NCBI GenBank assembly: GCA_000004985.1 | Contig: GG738924.1 | Source of the DNA: Naegleria gruberi | Taxonomy: Eukaryota | Reading direction: 5' to 3' (one strand) | DNA length: 64,000 bases | In this document: in pieces, positions 5,501-48,382 of the stretch | How the letters are laid out: each line of letters opens with the position of its first letter | How positions within the stretch are numbered: position 1 is the first letter of the stretch | Position numbers and translations under genes: made by a program | The notes under the pieces: model-generated | Database searches by the model: none | Seen by the model: only the letters and a program-made list of their open reading frames with translations | What the model was told of the DNA's origin: nothing

Positions 5501-7413
5501 NNNNNNNNNNNNNNNNNNNNNNNNNNNNNNNNNNNNNNNNNNNNNNNNNNNNNNNNNNNNNNNNNNNNNNNNNNNNNNNNNNNNNNNNNNNNNNNNNNNN
5601 NNNNNNNNNNNNNNNNNNNNNNNNNNNNNNNNNNNNNNNNNNNNNNNNNNNNNNNNNNNNNNNNNNNNNNNNNNNNNNNNNNNNNNNNNNNNNNNNNNNN
5701 NNNNNNNNNNNNNNNNNNNNNNNNNNNNNNNNNNNNNNNNNNNNNNNNNNNNNNNNNNNNNNNNNNNNNNNNNNNNNNNNNNNNNNNNNNNNNNNNNNNN
5801 NNNNNNNNNNNNNNNNNNNNNNNNNNNNNNNNNNNNNNNNNNNNNNNNNNNNNNNNNNNNNNNNNNNNNNNNNNNNNNNNNNNNNNNNNNNNNNNNNNNN
5901 NNNNNNNNNNNNNNNNNNNNNNNNNNNNNNNNNNNNNNNNNNNNNNNNNNNNNNNNNNNNNNNNNNNNNNNNNNNNNNNNNNNNNNNNNNNNNNNNNNNN
6001 NNNNNNNNNNNNNNNNNNNNNNNNNNNNNNNNNNNNNNNNNNNNNNNNNNNNNNNNNNNNNNNNNNNNNNNNNNNNNNNNNNNNNNNNNNNNNNNNNNNN
6101 NNNNNNNNNNNNNNNNNNNNNNNNNNNNNNNNNNNNNNNNNNNNNNNNNNNNNNNNNNNNNNNNNNNNNNNNNNNNNNNNNNNNNNNNNNNNNNNNNNNN
6201 NNNNNNNNNNNNNNNNNNNNNNNNNNNNNNNNNNNNNNNNNNNNNNNNNNNNNNNNNNNNNNNNNNNNNNNNNNNNNNNNNNNNNNNNNNNNNNNNNNNN
6301 NNNNNNNNNNNNNNNNNNNNNNNNNNNNNNNNNNNNNNNNNNNNNNNNNNNNNNNNNNNNNNNNNNNNNNNNNNNNNNNNNNNNNNNNNNNNNNNNNNNN
6401 NNNNNNNNNNNNNNNNNNNNNNNNNNNNNNNNNNNNNNNNNNNNNNNNNNNNNNNNNNNNNNNNNNNNNNNNNNNNNNNNNNNNNNNNNNNNNNNNNNNN
6501 NNNNNNNNNNNNNNNNNNNNNNNNNNNNNNNNNNNNNNNNNNNNNNNNNNNNNNNNNNNNNNNNNNNNNNNNNNNNNNNNNNNNNNNNNNNNNNNNNNNN
6601 NNNNNNNNNNNNNNNNNNNNNNNNNNNNNNNNNNNNNNNNNNNNNNNNNNNNNNNNNNNNNNNNNNNNNNNNNNNNNNNNNNNNNNNNNNNNNNNNNNNN
6701 NNNNNNNNNNNNNNNNNNNNNNNNNNNNNNNNNNNNNNNNNNNNNNNNNNNNNNNNNNNNNNNNNNNNNNNNNNNNNNNNNNNNNNNNNNNNNNNNNNNN
6801 NNNNNNNNNNNNNNNNNNNNNNNNNNNNNNNNNNNNNNNNNNNNNNNNNNNNNNNNNNNNNNNNNNNNNNNNNNNNNNNNNNNNNNNNNNNNNNNNNNNN
6901 NNNNNNNNNNNNNNNNNNNNNNNNNNNNNNNNNNNNNNNNNNNNNNNNNNNNNNNNNNNNNNNNNNNNNNNNNNNNNNNNNNNNNNNNNNNNNNNNNNNN
7001 NNNNNNNNNNNNNNNNNNNNNNNNNNNNNNNNNNNNNNNNNNNNNNNNNNNNNNNNNNNNNNNNNNNNNNNNNNNNNNNNNNNNNNNNNNNNNNNNNNNN
7101 NNNNNNNNNNNNNNNNNNNNNNNNNNNNNNNNNNNNNNNNNNNNNNNNNNNNNNNNNNNNNNNNNNNNNNNNNNNNNNNNNNNNNNNNNNNNNNNNNNNN
7201 NNNNNNNNNNNNNNNNNNNNNNNNNNNNNNNNNNNNNNNNNNNNNNNNNNNNNNNNNNNNNNNNNNNNNNNNNNNNNNNNNNNNNNNNNNNNNNNNNNNN
7301 NNNNNNNNNNNNNNNNNNNNNNNNNNNNNNNNNNNNNNNNNNNNNNNNNNNNNNNNNNNNNNNNNNNNNNNNNNNNNNNNNNNNNNNNNNNNNNNNNNNN
7401 NNNNNNNNNNNNN
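2522..7413. other. assembly gap (N run, about 4.9 kb)
   Basis: Uninterrupted n characters. Confidence 0.99.
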
Positions 7414-7955
7414 CTTACTCACCAAGTTATTCATGCGAGATGGTGATCCAGCTCCACTTCCAGGTGAAGCACCATGTCCACCACCACCAACAGGTGATGA
7501 TGCATTAGCTCCATAACTTGATCTCTTATCTGGCGTGTTGATTGGTGAGCTAGGAAGTGGTGAATCCTGAGTTGTGCTTGTGGATTTCTTTGGTGTGGAG
7601 GTGCTATTCGTTGATTTTGCAATCTGAATGATATAGTCACATTGTGAAAACTCTTCCTGACTAATCTGTCCTCCCTCGATGCATCTCTCGCAAACTAATC
7701 TTACATTCTTGAGAATGTCTTGAACAATGGATCCCACCAGACGTGTTGGATTGTAATATTTGGAAAATGTCATTCCGTGAATTTGTTTTAACAAGGTTGT
7801 TTTGCCACTATCACCTAAGTTTCGAATAATAATTTTGTTAATCTATTTGGCTTGCATTACAACATACCTGAACCAAATAAAAGTATTTTAGCTTGATCTT
7901 GCTCTAGCATTTCGTCTAGATCGACTTCAGAACGATCACCTGTGGAGCGAAGCAT
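7414..7955 (-). CDS. G-alpha-like GTPase paralog A, 5' end: exon 1 7867-7955, 51-nt intron 7816-7866 (GTATGT..TTAG), exon 2 7414-7815 running into the gap.
   Basis: The reverse strand translates to MLRSTGDRSEVDLDEMLEQDQAKILLFGS|GDSGKTTLLKQIHGMTFSKYYNP..., i.e. P-loop GSGDSGKTT. The helical-domain start resembles G-alpha (VKQMKIIH..GYS), followed by an S/T/P/G-rich insert. The intron splits the Gly codon. Confidence 0.6.
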
Positions 7956-18253: not shown

Positions 18254-18327
18254 GCAGCGATAGATCAGTTGGTTAGATCGTAAGCCTAACACGCTTAAGG
18301 TCGCGGGTTCAAGCCCCGCTCGCTGTA
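18254..18327 (+). tRNA. tRNA-Val (anticodon AAC)
   Basis: Hand-folded cloverleaf: acceptor GCAGCGA/TCGCTGT (G1-U72 wobble), D arm GATC-AGTTGGTTA-GATC, anticodon arm TAAGC-CTAACAC-GCTTA, T arm GCGGG-TTCAAGC-CCCGC, discriminator A. Confidence 0.8.
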
Positions 18328-18330
18328 TCC

Positions 18331-18334
18331 TTTT
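18331..18334 (+). terminator. Pol III T4 terminator after tRNA-Val
   Basis: TTTT 4 nt past the discriminator. Confidence 0.5.
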
Positions 18335-18726
18335 GCACAATAGTAAATTTGACTTTGGAAATGTTAGGGTGATTACAAATCATGATCACTTCATCAATGC
18401 AGTTCAGTCTCAAAATTGGCTTTTCTTGTACAAGCAAGTAAAAATAAGTGAAGAGCATTGTCTTTAGCATTTAACAGCATCTTTTAATTCATGCACCTTC
18501 TTTGAGTTTTTATTTCAACAAATTTCAAATAATAAAGAATAGTTTGTCAAAGTAAAACACTTGTGAGCTATACTCGCTGGTGTAATTTGTGGGCATCCTT
18601 GAGGATTTGGAATTAATAGCTTGGTCTATTATTCACATTCAACAGTTCTAGCAATGACTTAGAATTCAACCAGTACATTTGGAATTAAGTACCCAAACAA
18701 AAGGTGTTGGTGAACAAAAAACGTAA

Positions 18727-18815
18727 GGCGGCTTAGCACAGTGGCAGTGCATCAGTCTTGTAGGCAGAAATGCTGAGATAACTGAGGGTCGAGGGTTCAA
18801 TTCCCTCAGTCGCCT
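18727..18815 (+). tRNA. intron-containing tRNA (17-nt intron after position 37); anticodon loop CTTGTA|A gives TGT = Thr(UGU), with Tyr not fully excluded
   Basis: Acceptor GGCGGCT/AGTCGCC, D arm GCAC-AGTGGCA-GTGC, anticodon stem TCAGT...ACTGA separated by 24 nt (7-nt loop plus GGCAGAAATGCTGAGAT intron), variable GGGTC, T arm GAGGG-TTCAATT-CCCTC. A T run follows. Confidence 0.65.
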
Positions 18816-18836
18816 TTTGTTAATTGATAATCAAGT

Positions 18837-41922: not shown

Positions 41923-43011
41923 ATGGGTTGTTATGCTAAAGAGAATAGATTAACCGACCAAGAAGAAATTTTCAATGAGGGAGGAGGAGATGACGTAGCA
42001 GTTATGAAATATTTTGATATTAAGAATTCATCAATATTAGCAGCAACTATTATTTGGCAATTTTCGGATGAACATATGATGTTTTATTCGGGCGAATCTC
42101 GTGAAGAATTTCAAGATAATATGCCCCTCAATGACTTTGCCAATGAATGTATTCCATTGTGGTTACCTGACATTAGAAAGAAAGCTTTCAAAATTTGCAC
42201 TTTGAAAGAATGGTTAGATGAAGATGAAAATAATCCTCTTCATTCTTCTGGATTTCAATTTTCTCCTTCATACATAGGAAGTTCATCAATTGAGAAGGAA
42301 GGTACAATTTATTGTGCTTCAAATGATTTGTTTTCTCCTCATCAAGTAATGATGAAAGAAAAAATTAAGAGAAAGTTTGTGGAATTTTGTGCTTGTACCT
42401 CCTTTGGAAATGGATTGGATATTGAGGGAATTGATTTTTCAATGTTATGTGGAAAGATTTCGGATAACAGCTTGAAAACAGAGTTTATTGTACCATGTGC
42501 TTATAATCAAGTAGAAGAAACTCCTGTTATAGTGATTGGATACCCAACAAGACCTTCCAAGGCTCAAATTCTGAATGCTTATGAAATTCCTCCAAAAAGG
42601 AGGGCATTCGATGCTATATTCTCTTACAATTATAAAACAGCAAGTATAGGAAAGATCAAACACAGCACTAATCCCGATTTCATGTTAATTTCAAATGCGA
42701 CTTGTTTTGGAATGGAAGGTTCTGCTGTATTTTCTATAAAAGGGGAATTAATTGGAATAGTTATGAAAAGAAAGAAGATTTCAAAGTATAACATTGTTTT
42801 AAGTGTAAATCATCCAAGTTTTGTCATTGAATATTTGAGCTACCCAGGAAATGAACTTCTTTCTATGGATAGATCATTATATCTGCCTTTACTAGCTCCA
42901 TATATTGAGAAACACTTTCAACTTTTAACGAAAGCAATCGAAAACAAGTTGTTGAACGAAACTTTGAAGAAGAATGTGAAAAATGTGTTGGACATGGTTA
43001 ATATGAGATAA
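41923..43011 (+). CDS. hypothetical protein with N-terminal MGC (myristoylation/palmitoylation-type start) and a C-terminal trypsin-like (chymotrypsin-fold) peptidase-like domain
   Basis: ...PVIVIGYPTRPS...NATCFGMEGSAVFSIKGELIGIVMKR resembles the GxSGxP..G(E/K)(L/V)(I/V)GI nucleophile block of S1/S7-type serine peptidases. Confidence 0.45.
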   Translation: MGCYAKENRLTDQEEIFNEGGGDDVAVMKYFDIKNSSILAATIIWQFSDEHMMFYSGESREEFQDNMPLNDFANECIPLWLPDIRKKAFKICTLKEWLDEDENNPLHSSGFQFSPSYIGSSSIEKEGTIYCASNDLFSPHQVMMKEKIKRKFVEFCACTSFGNGLDIEGIDFSMLCGKISDNSLKTEFIVPCAYNQVEETPVIVIGYPTRPSKAQILNAYEIPPKRRAFDAIFSYNYKTASIGKIKHSTNPDFMLISNATCFGMEGSAVFSIKGELIGIVMKRKKISKYNIVLSVNHPSFVIEYLSYPGNELLSMDRSLYLPLLAPYIEKHFQLLTKAIENKLLNETLKKNVKNVLDMVNMR

Positions 43012-43661: not shown

Positions 43662-43734
43662 GCTGGCGTAGCTCAGTCGGTAGAGCGTTGGTCTAATAAG
43701 CCATTGGTCGCCGGTTCGATCCCGTCCGTCAGCA
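43662..43734 (+). tRNA. tRNA-Ile (anticodon AAU); T-stem and anticodon-stem each carry one mismatch
   Basis: GCTGGCG-TA-GCTC-AGTCGGTA-GAGC-G-TTGGT-CTAATAA-GCCAT-TGGTC-GCCGG-TTCGATC-CCGTC-CGTCAGC-A. A TTTT run lies at 43739-43742. Confidence 0.7.
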
Positions 43735-44440
43735 ATGATTTTATACATTACGTTTTGAATCATTAAAACATTCGCGTACTTTGACTCTCAAACAATGTTT
43801 CAAGAAAGCTTATCAACTAGCTTTACAGATTATAGGAAACACTGGTATGTGTTTTGAAGAATAATATCTGATTGAAATAATCCTCTTTTTCTAAAGTAGT
43901 TGATTCTAGTGTTTTCTTCCAAACAATTGTCCGCCAATTAACATTTACTCAAACTGGAATCTTTTAAGGTTTTTCCAAAATACTCTTAATAAAATTAACA
44001 TCTATTTCAATGGTGGACTTGCGTTTCAGAAAAAATATGAAATTGACACACAAAAAGTTTGTGAGTGAAGGTAGTGTCGATCTACCACCTTAGATTCAAC
44101 GGTGAGCGTCTATGTTCTCCCAATTAAACTATTCACCCACAAATTTATCTATTAAACACACAGATCAAGATATGATAATAAGCACTTCCAAAAATAGATT
44201 TGGTTTTGGTTTTGATTAATTTTAAATATAACTTATTGAATTTGACGCTCTATTCAGAATAGAGTTTAGTCAGTGGATTGTTTGAAATATGAGTTGATAT
44301 TTGAAAAGTAAATTAGTAAATTGAATCAGTGAAGGTTTCATTAGGGGAAATCAGATTTCCATCCAAATTTGGAACCTTACATCTAACTTTTTGAGTTTGT
44401 TCCAAATGAAAAACTATTCGAAATGGTTTAAATTAGCACC

Positions 44441-45439
44441 ATGTGTTTGAACTTTACTATCCAACAAAAAAAAATGAAAACAAATCTAATCTTTTCAATT
44501 GCAATTCTACTTTTACTTGCAATCCTCTCAGTTCAAGCAAGTGACAGCTATCAAACTAAACCTCCAGTTGTTGACAAGTATCACAAGCCAAGAATTTGTA
44601 AGAGAAAATGTTTAAAGCACAAGTGGATTAAGAAGTGTTTGAAACACAAACTCGTCGGTCAAAAGAAGGTCTGTGATCAATATGCAATTGTCGGTGCTGG
44701 CAAATGTCTCAAACATAAGAAATATTCTAAATGTGACAAGTACAGTAAGGCAACAAAGAAGTGTGTCTTGCATGCATACAAGATTGTTGGATGTGCCAAG
44801 AAGAAGTATTGGAAAGTTTGTGATTCTTATGGAACTAAGAAGATTTGTATCAAGAAGGGTTACAAGAAATTCTGTGCCAAACACAAGATTATCAACAAGT
44901 GCGTCAAGAAGGGATATAAGAAGGTCTGTAAGAAATTCAAGAAGGTTCCAATCAAGAAGTGTGAAAAGAAGAAGATTTGCGACAAGTATACTGTTGATTC
45001 CTATAATAAGAAGGTTGCCAAATGTAGATATGTTAAAAAGTGCAAGATTGTTTCATGGGCAAAGAAATGCGCCAAGTATAAGAAGGTTAAATACTGTAAG
45101 GAGAGAAAATCCATTAAGAAGTGTTGTCTCATTAAGAAGAAATTCTTCTGTGCCAAACATAAGACTATCAAGTTCTGTAAACACAAGAAGACTATTTCCA
45201 AATGTGTGAAATATAACAAGAAGAAGTATTGTGCCAAGTCAATTGTCATTCCACCAAGATGTATCAAGAAGAAGTATTATAAGAAGTGTTTGAAACGTTC
45301 AAAGGGAAAGAAGATTTGTAAGAAATTCAAATTAGTTGGTGGAAAGAAAAAGTGTTGCAAGTCAATCAAGAAGAAGATTTGTATCAAGAGAAAGACATGC
45401 AAAAAGTCATCAAAGCCAATCGTTAAACCATCCTTGTAA
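44441..45439 (+). CDS. secreted lysine/cysteine-rich repeat protein (probable start at the second Met, 44474: MKTNLIFSIAILLLLAILSVQA signal peptide)
   Basis: After the signal peptide, about 300 aa are roughly 35% Lys and 13% Cys in about 25 degenerate units (K/C)KKxCxKxKK(I/V). No His/acidic residues, no TM segment. Confidence 0.6.
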   Translation: MCLNFTIQQKKMKTNLIFSIAILLLLAILSVQASDSYQTKPPVVDKYHKPRICKRKCLKHKWIKKCLKHKLVGQKKVCDQYAIVGAGKCLKHKKYSKCDKYSKATKKCVLHAYKIVGCAKKKYWKVCDSYGTKKICIKKGYKKFCAKHKIINKCVKKGYKKVCKKFKKVPIKKCEKKKICDKYTVDSYNKKVAKCRYVKKCKIVSWAKKCAKYKKVKYCKERKSIKKCCLIKKKFFCAKHKTIKFCKHKKTISKCVKYNKKKYCAKSIVIPPRCIKKKYYKKCLKRSKGKKICKKFKLVGGKKKCCKSIKKKICIKRKTCKKSSKPIVKPSL

Positions 45440-45520
45440 ATTAATGGCATTTGCTAATACACTCTTAGTAATACGTGAGAAATATTAATAACAAAATAAA
45501 TTAAACTATTTCACTACAGT

Positions 45521-48382
45521 TTATTTAGAAACTTTGGATGACAATGAGGCAAGAGCCATTTTGGCAAGCTCTCTACACTCATTACCTCCATCATTCTCAC
45601 TAATATCCATCAACCAATCAAATACCGAATGCACCTCCACCTTCACTTCATTCAACAGAGTTTCAGATGTGCAAGAACAGAAGGAGGTATGAAGTGTATT
45701 TAGAATACTAGCTCTAAGACTATTCACTTTTTGGACATCCTTACAGTGTAGAATGAGTGTCCAACAGAATTCGATGGTATTCCTTGCCAATTCTTGTCCA
45801 ACCAATGGAGCAGGATTAGATCCACAACAATATATGAAAATTCCAATGGTGTGAATAATCTTGGAGAGAACTAAACTATCCTCACCAAACATGATGTGAA
45901 TGGTGTTAGACATTTGATTCTTTGTTCTCAGCAGCATGTAGTAGAATCGGTAGGCGTGGAGAAGAAAGTAGTTTGCCTTGGCTACCTTTTCTGTCTTTTT
46001 CTTATTTAGGGAGGAGCCCCATCTTCTAGTGTTGGCTGGATATTGAGGAGTGTAGGTGGTTTTGGAATTCTTTGTTTCGTTAGTGGAGGTTGGAGGTGTA
46101 TCTTCCTTCTTCTTTTCAGATTGAGAGATTGAAGTATTATTCGAAAGATTGAGGGCAGATTTCACAAGTACTGTCAAAATGTCAATTCTTTGAGCTTGGG
46201 TCACTTGGTTGGACCAGAATTTGTTTGTCAAGTATATTAAAACTGTTTCATCTTCAAAGTCAATAGACCTCTGATCTTGCTTATCAAATTGAAGTTCAAT
46301 TACGGATGAACATGTCTTGGTGAGAAGTGCAACCATGGCATTCATTCTATCTGTGAAATAATTATCAATGGTAGTCTCTGAACAGGTCAATAGAGCTGTA
46401 CACAAATTAACACCATTCAATTGGACCACCTTTGGATCTGCTCTTTCAATAATTGTGGTTGCATACTTGAGAGCTGCTTCAATTTTGAACATTTGATCCT
46501 TGTCTTGATCGTTGGCAAATAAAAAGTCAATTACATCCTTGATATAGTATGGTCTGTAAGGATTATTCTCGTGATCATGCTCCTCATCAGACATGTCCAA
46601 AGATTGGAGAGATTCTACTGAAGATGTATCAGAGAGATCTGCTTCTTCCTCTTCAGAGCTACTGCTCTCCTCGTCGTCATCGAGGAGTAATTGATTAGGA
46701 TTGAAAACTTTCTCCTTCTTTTTCTTATCAAGATCCTTCTTTAAATTTGATTTTGGTTCTCCAAATACATTGGGTTTCCTCTCTGAAAAATTGGTACTTG
46801 AATTCTGAATGTTAGATGTGAGCTCATCGAGACAATCCTTGTATTCTTCAAAGAGAACGAGCGGAGGTTGCTTTGGATTAATGCTCTTACTCATTTGTAG
46901 AGAAAGTAACTAGATATTGTTAAATATATATGTATGACAACTAATCAACTTACACATCCACTTTTTCTTACATAGTCAATTGAAGAATGTAATCTTTGCT
47001 GAATTCCTTCAATACAATTTTTCAAGGTATTTGAAATTTCAAACTCTTCCTTGCTCATTAGTGAAATAAGCATAGCAAGACAATACGATACATCTATTAA
47101 ATTATTCCATTATTAGAAAATGCCACATTATTAATAAAAACATACATAATTGCTGTTCCTCATTAGATTGCATAATAAAATAATGTTGTTTCCATATTGA
47201 ACTGATATAATCCGTTACTGATGAAAGGGCAATTGTTGTATTGGTACAAGCTGGTCCGATTGAATCAATTAACATCTTTACAAAAATATACTCATTCCTG
47301 TTTACAACGTGTGGTGCAAAGGCGTACTTGAAAATAAGTGCATTTGAGAATAGTTCATACCACAAAAATGATTTGAGAATCTTCTCATTGAAAAACTTGA
47401 CCAATTCTTCATACCTATCCAAACTTGGTCTACTCTTTAGAACTTTGATGATGAATGATTTTACAATATTTTCCAGTGCACTAATATTGAAACCCTTTCT
47501 ATTTTCCAATGAAGATAATACTCTGTACAATTGATGATTGGATTCTGAAAACCATTTCACAAGTATATCACAACAAATATCTCCATATCCTCTCTTGATG
47601 AATTGTAAAATGAAATTTCCAGCTATGTCAATGGAATAATTGATAATTTCCTCATCCTCAGACTCTATGGAAATTAGTGAATTGATTATGTGTGAAATAT
47701 AGATATCAGAATTGAATAGCTTTGGTAACTTCCACAATGAAGAGTTTGTTCTCATGTATTGAGATTGAGTGCTAAGCTCTCCTTTGAAAACAAGTAGATC
47801 CTCAGATGCTGATGCATGGTCCAGCAATTCTACAATTAAACTATCATTCTTTTTTGACGTAGACCCTTTCGAATCGTCTCGATTTCTATCATCACTCTTA
47901 AAATAGAGTGCACTAATCTTTTCATGAAGAGTTAAAATAATTCTAATGATGGTCTCTTGTTCAATATTGCCAGTTATTGAATTTTTCCCTCCTTCCATAC
48001 AAGATTTCACCATACTGAAATAAAAATCATTTTGTTCCATCATGGGCACCAGTAAATTATGAATAATTATTGGAAAATGCTTATGAGAAAGGACATAATC
48101 CACTAGAAAGCAAAACCTCTCCACAAAATTTGTTGCCTTTTTCTTGTACGAGTTCGACAAAATGATGTGTGGTATTATCAATTGTTTAATTTCCATATCG
48201 GAGAAGAGAGAAATGTGATCAGCAATAATTCTCACAATTTCCGAAAATGATTTTCCCTCAATTTTAAAATTACTATTTGATTCCGAGAGGAGAGAAGTAG
48301 ATGATGATGAATTCATCGAAACAACCCTTCCTAACAAATTCTTCAATTCCGAATTGATATCTTCCTTGTTGAATTGACTCAT
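45521..48382 (-). CDS. three-exon gene, 48382-47146 / 47093-46954 / 46909-45521, encoding an about 920-aa all-helical (HEAT/ARM-like) protein with an acidic Ser-rich linker; tentatively TELO2-like
   Basis: The two annotated ORFs (47102-48382 and 45521-46894) are joined in frame through a 140-nt middle exon by introns GTATGT..TTAATAG (52 nt) and GTAAGT..ATCTAG (44 nt). Linker SSSSEEEEADLSDTSSVESLQSLDMSDEEHD resembles the CK2-site cluster of Tel2. Confidence 0.5.

Follow-up and report, generated by a model that had tools for sequence, protein, structure and literature searches.

A lysine-rich protein with periodic cysteines from Naegleria gruberi, a candidate extracellular structural protein of the amoeba cyst wall

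In a stretch of 64,000 nucleotides from Naegleria gruberi (contig GG738924.1 of assembly GCA_000004985.1; this whole stretch is called the window), we analysed a gene on the plus strand whose product combines a signal peptide, an exceptionally high lysine content and cysteines placed at regular intervals. Comparison with its relatives indicates that the gene is real, protein-coding and under purifying selection, and places it in an uncharacterised family that is seen only in Naegleria and Willaertia. We tentatively favour, although at somewhat less than even chance, a disulfide-cross-linked polycationic extracellular structural protein, most plausibly one of the cyst wall or its cement.

A first-pass annotation, made from the letters of the sequence, had reported an open reading frame (ORF) at 44441-45439. 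The frame at 44441..45439 on the plus strand is indeed a single one without interruption, with 332 codons (332 aa) when the upstream ATG is included. The start at 44441, however, is not the one that homologues support. Since these begin with MK followed by a hydrophobic stretch, the translation start is most likely the second ATG at 44474. The upstream extension would put 11 residues before the signal peptide, and none of the homologues carries such an extension. The precursor then has 321 aa and the mature part 299 aa, beginning with SDSY. The gene and its segments are as follows.

44474..45439, plus strand: coding sequence in a single exon, 321 codons and TAA; start placed from the MK and hydrophobic N-termini of orthologues and paralogues
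44441..44473, plus strand: in-frame upstream extension MCLNFTIQQKK, probably 5' untranslated region; absent from homologues
44474..44539, plus strand: predicted signal peptide of 22 aa, MKTNLIFSIAILLLLAILSVQA, with a V-Q-A cleavage motif; read from the sequence
44540..44596, plus strand: N-terminal tail of the mature part, free of Cys, SDSYQTKPPVVDKYHKPRI; it contains two motifs of the D-x-Y-x-K-P type, from a motif scan
44597..45400, plus strand: Lys-rich periodic-Cys core, 32 Cys in 268 residues with a modal spacing of 9; from spacing, shuffle test, self-similarity and conserved Cys columns
44846..44959, plus strand: clearest internal duplication, two units of 18-20 residues, CIKKGYKKFCAKHKIINK / CVKKGYKKVCKKFKKVPIKK; placed by eye
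45401..45436, plus strand: short basic C-terminal tail, KKSSKPIVKPSL, without a hydrophobic anchor or retention signal

The mature protein contains 35.5% Lys and 2.3% Arg and has a net charge of +104 (K+R-D-E), which agrees with the approximately 35% Lys and charge of about +100 in the first-pass annotation. The 13% Cys given there was an overestimate, as Cys is 10.0-10.7%, the 32 cysteines making up 10.7% of the mature protein. The protein had also been described as devoid of acidic and aromatic residues, but we counted 7 Asp and 2 Glu, together with 19 Tyr (6.4%), 6 Phe (2.0%) and 3 Trp (1.0%), so that aromatics reach 9.4%. There are 8 His (2.7%), Pro accounts for 2.7% and Ser for about 5%.

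The 9-residue spacing of the cysteines is far beyond chance. Neighbouring cysteines are exactly 9 residues apart in 14 of the 31 gaps and 8-11 residues apart in 22 of them. The Cys autocorrelation at lag 9 was 16, compared with 3.4 ± 1.7 (maximum 10) in 20,000 composition-preserving shuffles, and it echoes at lags 18, 27 and 36. The consensus of the 9-mer, C-x-K-(K/H)-K-(Y/T/K/W)-(I/K/Y)-K-(K/V/F/Y), is close to the KKxCxKxKK(I/V) unit described before. About 30 Cys-delimited units can be counted rather than the 25 or so first given, and there are only two CC pairs. When the whole protein was scanned diagonally against itself with BLOSUM62, offset 18 was the strongest (ungapped score 169, shuffle maximum 99), followed by 27 and 9; by eye, the duplication at 44846..44959 is the clearest instance of the offset-18 repeat. 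BLASTP of the protein against itself gave no off-diagonal matches. Tandem Repeats Finder detected no DNA-level repeat across the coding repeats, with only three short low-scoring rows, and therefore the protein repeats appear to be old and diverged and not simple sequence. KR and RK pairs are few and aperiodic, and regular processing sites are absent.

The selective constraint on the gene was seen in two further contigs. In environmental contig L002 there is an orthologue in which 80% of the nucleotides are identical over 840 bp. In a 312-codon alignment with the window, the nonsynonymous divergence (dN) was 0.15 and the synonymous divergence (dS) 1.16, giving a dN/dS of 0.13; the orthologue retains 30 of the 32 cysteines and its indels are in-frame. 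The environmental contig L003 is 98.6% identical to the window and covers the last 180 bp of the gene, where the only differences are one synonymous change, a few tail substitutions and in-frame deletions of 9 bp and 3 bp in the C-terminal tail. The gene also has the highest AAG bias (73%) and the highest G+C content at third codon positions (GC3, 0.46) among the nine window ORFs compared, a codon bias that is compatible with high expression.

It could be argued that the frame is an artefact that arose by chance in AAG-rich simple sequence or that shadows an opposite-strand gene. The strong bias in composition, a +2 frame that is likewise open for 178 codons and the lack of an annotated full-length gene in the N. 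gruberi reference would favour this. The open +2 frame, however, is what the AAG-rich gene yields when it is read with a frameshift, and its translation is rich in Arg and Ser. Tandem repeats are absent at the DNA level, and the ORFs on the opposite strand inside the gene do not exceed 90 aa, as the first-pass annotation had seen, which excludes a by-product of that strand. A low dN/dS at a dS of about 1.2, indels that are in-frame against the relatives, and orthologues and paralogues in four species all speak for a gene. These comparative data already refute the artefact, and the probability that we leave to it is close to nil. Composition, shuffle test and selection support the earlier view of a genuine secreted polycationic repeat protein with periodic cysteines.

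A single interruption was observed in the L002 orthologue. At about position 632 of this contig an in-frame TGA stands where the window has the Gly codon GGA at 44804..44806 (KIN*CSKK and KIVGCAKK, respectively), and the rest of the frame is intact. The TGA could be a sequencing error, a pseudogenised or inactivated allele, or a case of read-through.

The first-pass annotation had suggested a search for paralogues, and relatives in Naegleria and Willaertia were found by profile searches. Searching 1.84 billion representative proteins with a family profile gave 18 matches at E<=1e-3, and a second, indexed profile search gave three further members. The named members are NAEGRDRAFT_67458, NAEGRDRAFT_64980, NAEGRDRAFT_66117 and NAEGRDRAFT_57793 of N. 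gruberi, FDP41_004030 of N. fowleri, C9374_009239 of N. lovaniensis and ABK040_005866 of Willaertia magna. Every named relative belongs to Naegleria or Willaertia, the remaining matches are metagenomic, and all members are labelled only as predicted or hypothetical proteins. Neither the protein nor 8 relatives had a credible Pfam match at E<=1, and when the family profile was run against PDB sequences no solved structure matched it credibly. In the searchable literature, no paper mentions any gene, protein or UniProt identifier of the family. The earlier statement that there is no obvious homologue class therefore stands for characterised families, but not for the clear uncharacterised homologues in these two genera. 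The paralogue search found no further family copies within the window.

The protein is significantly similar to the family over its full length, with E = 9e-58 and 88% of the query covered in the comparison with NAEGRDRAFT_67458, and its top database matches are Naegleria proteins. Its hydrophobic N-terminal segment MKTNLIFSIAILLLLAILSVQA, which had been noted as a clean signal peptide, is followed by SDSY, that is, by a D-(S/T/K)-Y motif. This layout was judged by inspection, as were the signal peptides in general, and it recurs in P0001, P0003, P0005, P0006 and P0009 (our own labels for family proteins). A signal-like hydrophobic N-terminus is present in P0001, P0003, P0005, P0006, P0007, P0022, P0025 and the L002 orthologue, and all full-length members examined have a signal peptide.

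The protein shares with the other members about 32 cysteines at a spacing of 9-10 residues, in conserved columns. These columns align and are near-invariant across paralogues that are only 30-50% identical. The mature parts of our protein, P0005, P0006 and P0025 have 32 cysteines each (tabulated totals, minus the Cys inside the predicted signal peptide in the case of P0005). All members tabulated have an isoelectric point of 9.2-10.8 and most have 8-10% Cys, while Lys varies from 12.5% to 33%; the window protein is the most Lys-rich, with 33% compared with 13-25% in the others. Since relatives with 13-14% Lys and 8-11% acidic residues, such as NAEGRDRAFT_57793, retain the same Cys scaffold, the conserved property is a basic scaffold with periodic cysteines and not a hyper-lysine surface.

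Members also share the landmarks GxGKC and VGGKK, as well as D-x-Y motifs. The family has as its second hallmark the motif (V/I/T)-D-(S/T)-Y-(K/A)-P, which contains no Cys and directly follows the signal peptide; in the window protein it reads SDSYQTKPPVVDKYHKP. The motif is found in tandem at the C-terminus of several relatives, with four copies of VDTYKPPKK in P0025, four of IDSYKP in P0006 of N. fowleri, and three copies each in P0016 and P0018.

Two architectural variants were observed within the family. Members of about 700 aa, namely NAEGRDRAFT_57793 (P0027), P0026 and P0021, carry an extra N-terminal array of about 400 aa made of four-Cys units of about 40 residues, CP-x(5-8)-C-x2-G-x(9-14)-C-x(3-4)-C. 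This array has no Pfam match and looks like a second uncharacterised Cys-repeat module. In P0008, a protein of 125 aa from a soil catalogue, ...LVGKKKVCDKY runs directly into TVDSYTPKKCRY..., and compared with P0001 a stretch of about 100 residues flanked by two similar KKVCD(Q/K)Y units is missing. This jump could reflect recombination among repeats or an artefact of assembly.

The comparison also points to an error in the reference annotation. The C-terminal 137 residues of our protein share 96% identity with the last part of N. gruberi NAEGRDRAFT_76199 (XP_002668872, P0002), a 443-aa model on a small scaffold of 39.8 kb, whose C-terminal part matches 45026..45436 of the window. The N-terminal 306 aa of this model contain SAM and PB1 and are without a counterpart anywhere in the window. 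Most likely, therefore, this model is chimeric, with a SAM/PB1 part joined to the C-terminal half of the gene, and the full-length gene is left unannotated in the reference.

We ran AlphaFold2 twice, with alignments of 4 and 11 sequences. Both models were of low confidence, the mean predicted local distance difference test score (pLDDT) being 42 in one run and 44 in the other, and we judged them unusable. Downstream of the signal peptide only beta strands and hairpins were predicted, plus one short C-terminal helix in the second run. A beta-rich, disulfide-stapled protein is no more than plausible. One may further conjecture an 18-residue coil with cysteines at positions 0 and 9 that are cross-braced, as this would fit the offset-18 signal.

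We consider an extracellular structural role because the protein has a signal peptide without an anchor, because its cysteines are even in number and conserved in position, and because the family is basic and has Tyr-Lys-Pro repeats in its tails. The even Cys count and the regular spacing would fit a fully disulfide-bonded extracellular protein. Inspection of the sequence revealed no C-terminal hydrophobic anchor or retention motif, and we saw no nuclear or organellar targeting signal in the protein. In the mechanism that we propose, the protein would enter the endoplasmic reticulum by means of its signal peptide, and the 32 cysteines would pair into 16 disulfides. The result would be a beta-rich array of 9/18-residue repeats, a stiff and protease-resistant rod or sheet with a surface that is almost entirely lysine. 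After export it would be deposited in an extracellular layer, probably the wall of the cyst or the cement, and there the lysine surface would attach by electrostatic attraction to polyanionic polysaccharide of the wall or to other negatively charged surfaces. Disulfide exchange, possibly with Tyr/Lys cross-links at the D-S/T-Y-K-P tail motifs, would then make it insoluble.

The cyst wall is favoured as the location since it is the only elaborate extracellular structure that these amoebae are known to make, and since both Naegleria and Willaertia, to which all named hosts belong, are known to form cysts. Among the functions proposed in the first-pass annotation, that of a polycationic matrix or coat component agrees best with the evidence, if it is moved into the context of the cyst; the sorocarp mentioned there belongs to other organisms, as Naegleria forms cysts but no sorocarps. 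A 2021 paper (PMC8063937) states that the molecular side of encystation in Naegleria is poorly understood. The literature searched contained no description of a Naegleria cyst-wall or matrix protein, and searches on the composition, proteome and transcriptome of the Naegleria cyst wall gave nothing that mentions the family.

Several observations weigh against the cyst wall. From the literature searched, including an RNA-seq paper on N. fowleri cysts and trophozoites in which no identifiers were usable, we obtained no evidence from expression, proteomics or localisation for a member of the family, and the family has no detectable homology to a known wall protein or carbohydrate-binding module. 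We know of no polyanion in the Naegleria cyst wall. The window protein itself has just two degenerate tail motifs, and the two AlphaFold2 models disagree, the better-scoring stretches being 139-214 in one run and 51-70 together with 231-290 in the other. In contig L004, from a more distant relative (58% identity of TEL2), the block of Yip1, Mur-ligase and TEL2 genes that also lies downstream of our gene is kept, but at positions 6314..7441, compared with 44400..45520 of the window, the place of the Lys/Cys-rich gene is taken by acidic ORFs that are unrelated to it. Since no family member stands beside TEL2 in L004, the window copy was gained or lost in a lineage-specific manner, and by this comparison it would be a lineage-specific insertion or duplication. 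This copy may accordingly be evolutionarily young and possibly dispensable.

By analogy, the closest working models for the protein are the apicomplexan oocyst wall proteins and the Tyr-Lys-Pro proteins of walls and cements. The COWP family of Cryptosporidium, as generally known, is secreted and has a Cys every 10-12 residues or so in degenerate repeats, with rigidity attributed to disulfides. We detected no sequence relationship to it, however, the taxon is unrelated, and COWPs, unlike the window protein, are not known to be polycationic. Tandem Tyr-Lys-Pro motifs serve as oxidative cross-linking sites in plant proline-rich wall proteins (PPVYK), in mussel foot protein 1 (AKPSYPPTYK) and in trematode eggshell precursors. 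These proteins are basic and secreted, and paralogue tails such as the four VDTYKPPKK copies resemble them; in the Naegleria family, however, the motif is confined to short tails, the bulk of the protein is a core with periodic Cys that is missing from those proteins, and no homology was detected. The antifreeze protein of Tenebrio is a beta-helix with a 12-residue Cys repeat and shares with our protein very short repeats with regular Cys, so that the 18-residue coil with Cys at 0 and 9 could conceivably be braced in a similar way. The window protein is without a Thr-rich ice-binding face or sequence similarity to it, and AlphaFold2 gave no confident model. Cationic Cys-stabilised antimicrobial peptides and their precursors are likewise cationic, Cys-containing and secreted. 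They differ in having a knot of 6-8 Cys, whereas the window protein has one Cys per unit, no periodic cleavage sites and an array of about 300 aa that is conserved as a whole.

The main rival to an extracellular structural protein is a polycation that binds or kills bacteria. It would be secreted or sent to food cups or phagosomes, and it would agglutinate or permeabilise bacteria either whole or as cleaved peptides that contain disulfides. Naegleria is a bacterivore and produces antimicrobial peptides, the naegleriapores, from multi-peptide precursors; our protein has a signal peptide and a charge of +104, with hydrophobic and aromatic residues interspersed in each 9-mer. We nevertheless regard this role as unlikely. 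The few KR/RK pairs do not form regular processing sites, the units are not near-identical cassettes but keep their own identity across paralogues, and one Cys per 9 residues gives no defensin-like knot within a unit. Moreover, the Cys scaffold persists in relatives that have 13-14% Lys and 8-11% acidic residues, so the extreme charge does not define the family. For the same reasons, and because the cysteines are individually conserved, the concatenated antimicrobial or nucleic-acid-binding peptides of the first-pass annotation fit least among its proposals.

Slightly less likely again is an adhesive or extracellular matrix protein of the trophozoite, acting in substrate attachment or as a surface cement and not in the cyst wall. 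The Lys, Tyr and Cys content and the Tyr-Lys-Pro tails of paralogues recall marine adhesive proteins as they are generally known, and the protein is secreted without an anchor. To our knowledge no proteinaceous adhesive trail has been described in Naegleria, and the sequence alone cannot separate an adhesive from a cyst-wall protein. The extreme density of positive charge (35.5% Lys) and the secretory route would also suit a packaging or counter-ion protein, which would condense a polyanion such as acidic mucopolysaccharide, polyphosphate or nucleic acid, either extracellularly or within secretory vesicles. However, 32 cysteines conserved in position are more than a simple counter-ion would require, a nuclear or organellar targeting signal is lacking and no partner is known, which makes this function improbable.

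A number of known classes were considered and rejected. Metallothioneins are small cytosolic proteins with 15-30% Cys in CxC, CC or CxxC clusters, essentially no aromatics and no signal peptide; the window protein has 10.7% Cys placed singly 9 apart with two CC pairs, 9.4% aromatics, a signal peptide and 299 aa. A precursor of defensin-like or Cys-knotted peptides was ruled out by one Cys per 9-residue unit, aperiodic KR/RK and no Pfam match, and a protamine- or histone-like nuclear protein by the signal peptide. A silaffin-like biomineralisation peptide does not agree with only 5% Ser and with the Cys-richness, and we know of no silica structures in Naegleria. Pro of 2.7% and just two degenerate N-terminal motifs, with tandem copies only in paralogue tails, exclude the class of PRP, extensin and mussel foot protein 1. 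The COWP class was set aside since no Pfam family was matched at E<=1 by the protein and 8 relatives, which presupposes a Pfam model that recognises type I/II repeats.

The gene stands between a tRNA and a housekeeping gene, as the first-pass annotation had described.

41923..43011, plus strand: gene with weak similarity to trypsin-like peptidases, upstream
43662..43734, plus strand: tRNA-Ile, about 740 bp upstream of the gene
45521..46894, minus strand: TEL2-like gene (Pfam Telomere_reg-2, E = 3e-18), convergent, ending 81 bp downstream of the ORF

Beyond the TEL2-like gene follow an unknown ORF and a Mur-ligase-domain protein on the minus strand and then a Yip1 gene on the plus strand. As expected in a eukaryote, the neighbouring genes are uninformative on function. 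The TEL2-like protein had no match among NCBI N. gruberi proteins and was found only in environmental contigs, at 99% and 58% identity. This suggests that the region is poorly represented, and perhaps missing or unannotated, in the N. gruberi reference assembly.

Between the tRNA-Ile and the gene we observed a hairpin of about 109 nt at 44046..44154, with the ends TTTGTGAGTGAAGG and TTCACCCACAAA as inverted repeats. The folding energy of its minus strand is -27.4 kcal/mol (z = -3.6), and this strand contains a T-arm-like GGTAG-ATCGACA-CTACC. A second tRNA at this place was called neither by ARAGORN nor by the Rfam tRNA models, and the sole Rfam match was a sub-threshold MIR403 (22 bits, gathering score 70). 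The hairpin could be a degenerate tRNA-derived element, the remnant of a small inverted-repeat transposon or an unknown non-coding RNA. Elsewhere in the window, at 18254..18816, there are two more tRNAs (Val-AAC and Thr-TGT). Seven runs of N between 1510 and 24611 add up to 10,607 N and include gaps of 4.9 kb and 5.5 kb, and the window is therefore part of a scaffolded draft assembly.

The probably chimeric model NAEGRDRAFT_76199 is an annotation error that hides a full-length gene in the N. gruberi reference. Whichever function proves right, the family has neither a Pfam model nor a known fold. If prey binding were true, it would represent an unusual type of giant polycationic effector. It is possible, although we consider it rather doubtful, that with this family a structural component of the Naegleria cyst wall is identified in molecular terms for the first time, built on a disulfide-braced 9/18-residue beta repeat with a near-pure lysine surface; this would be a new class of wall protein without relatives outside Naegleria and Willaertia. 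Its conservation in the pathogen N. fowleri (FDP41_004030) would then provide a usable cyst marker or target. A lineage-restricted and strongly constrained secreted family of such extreme composition, with a homologue in the brain-eating N. fowleri, is a concrete candidate for a cyst-wall or matrix component and a possible diagnostic handle.

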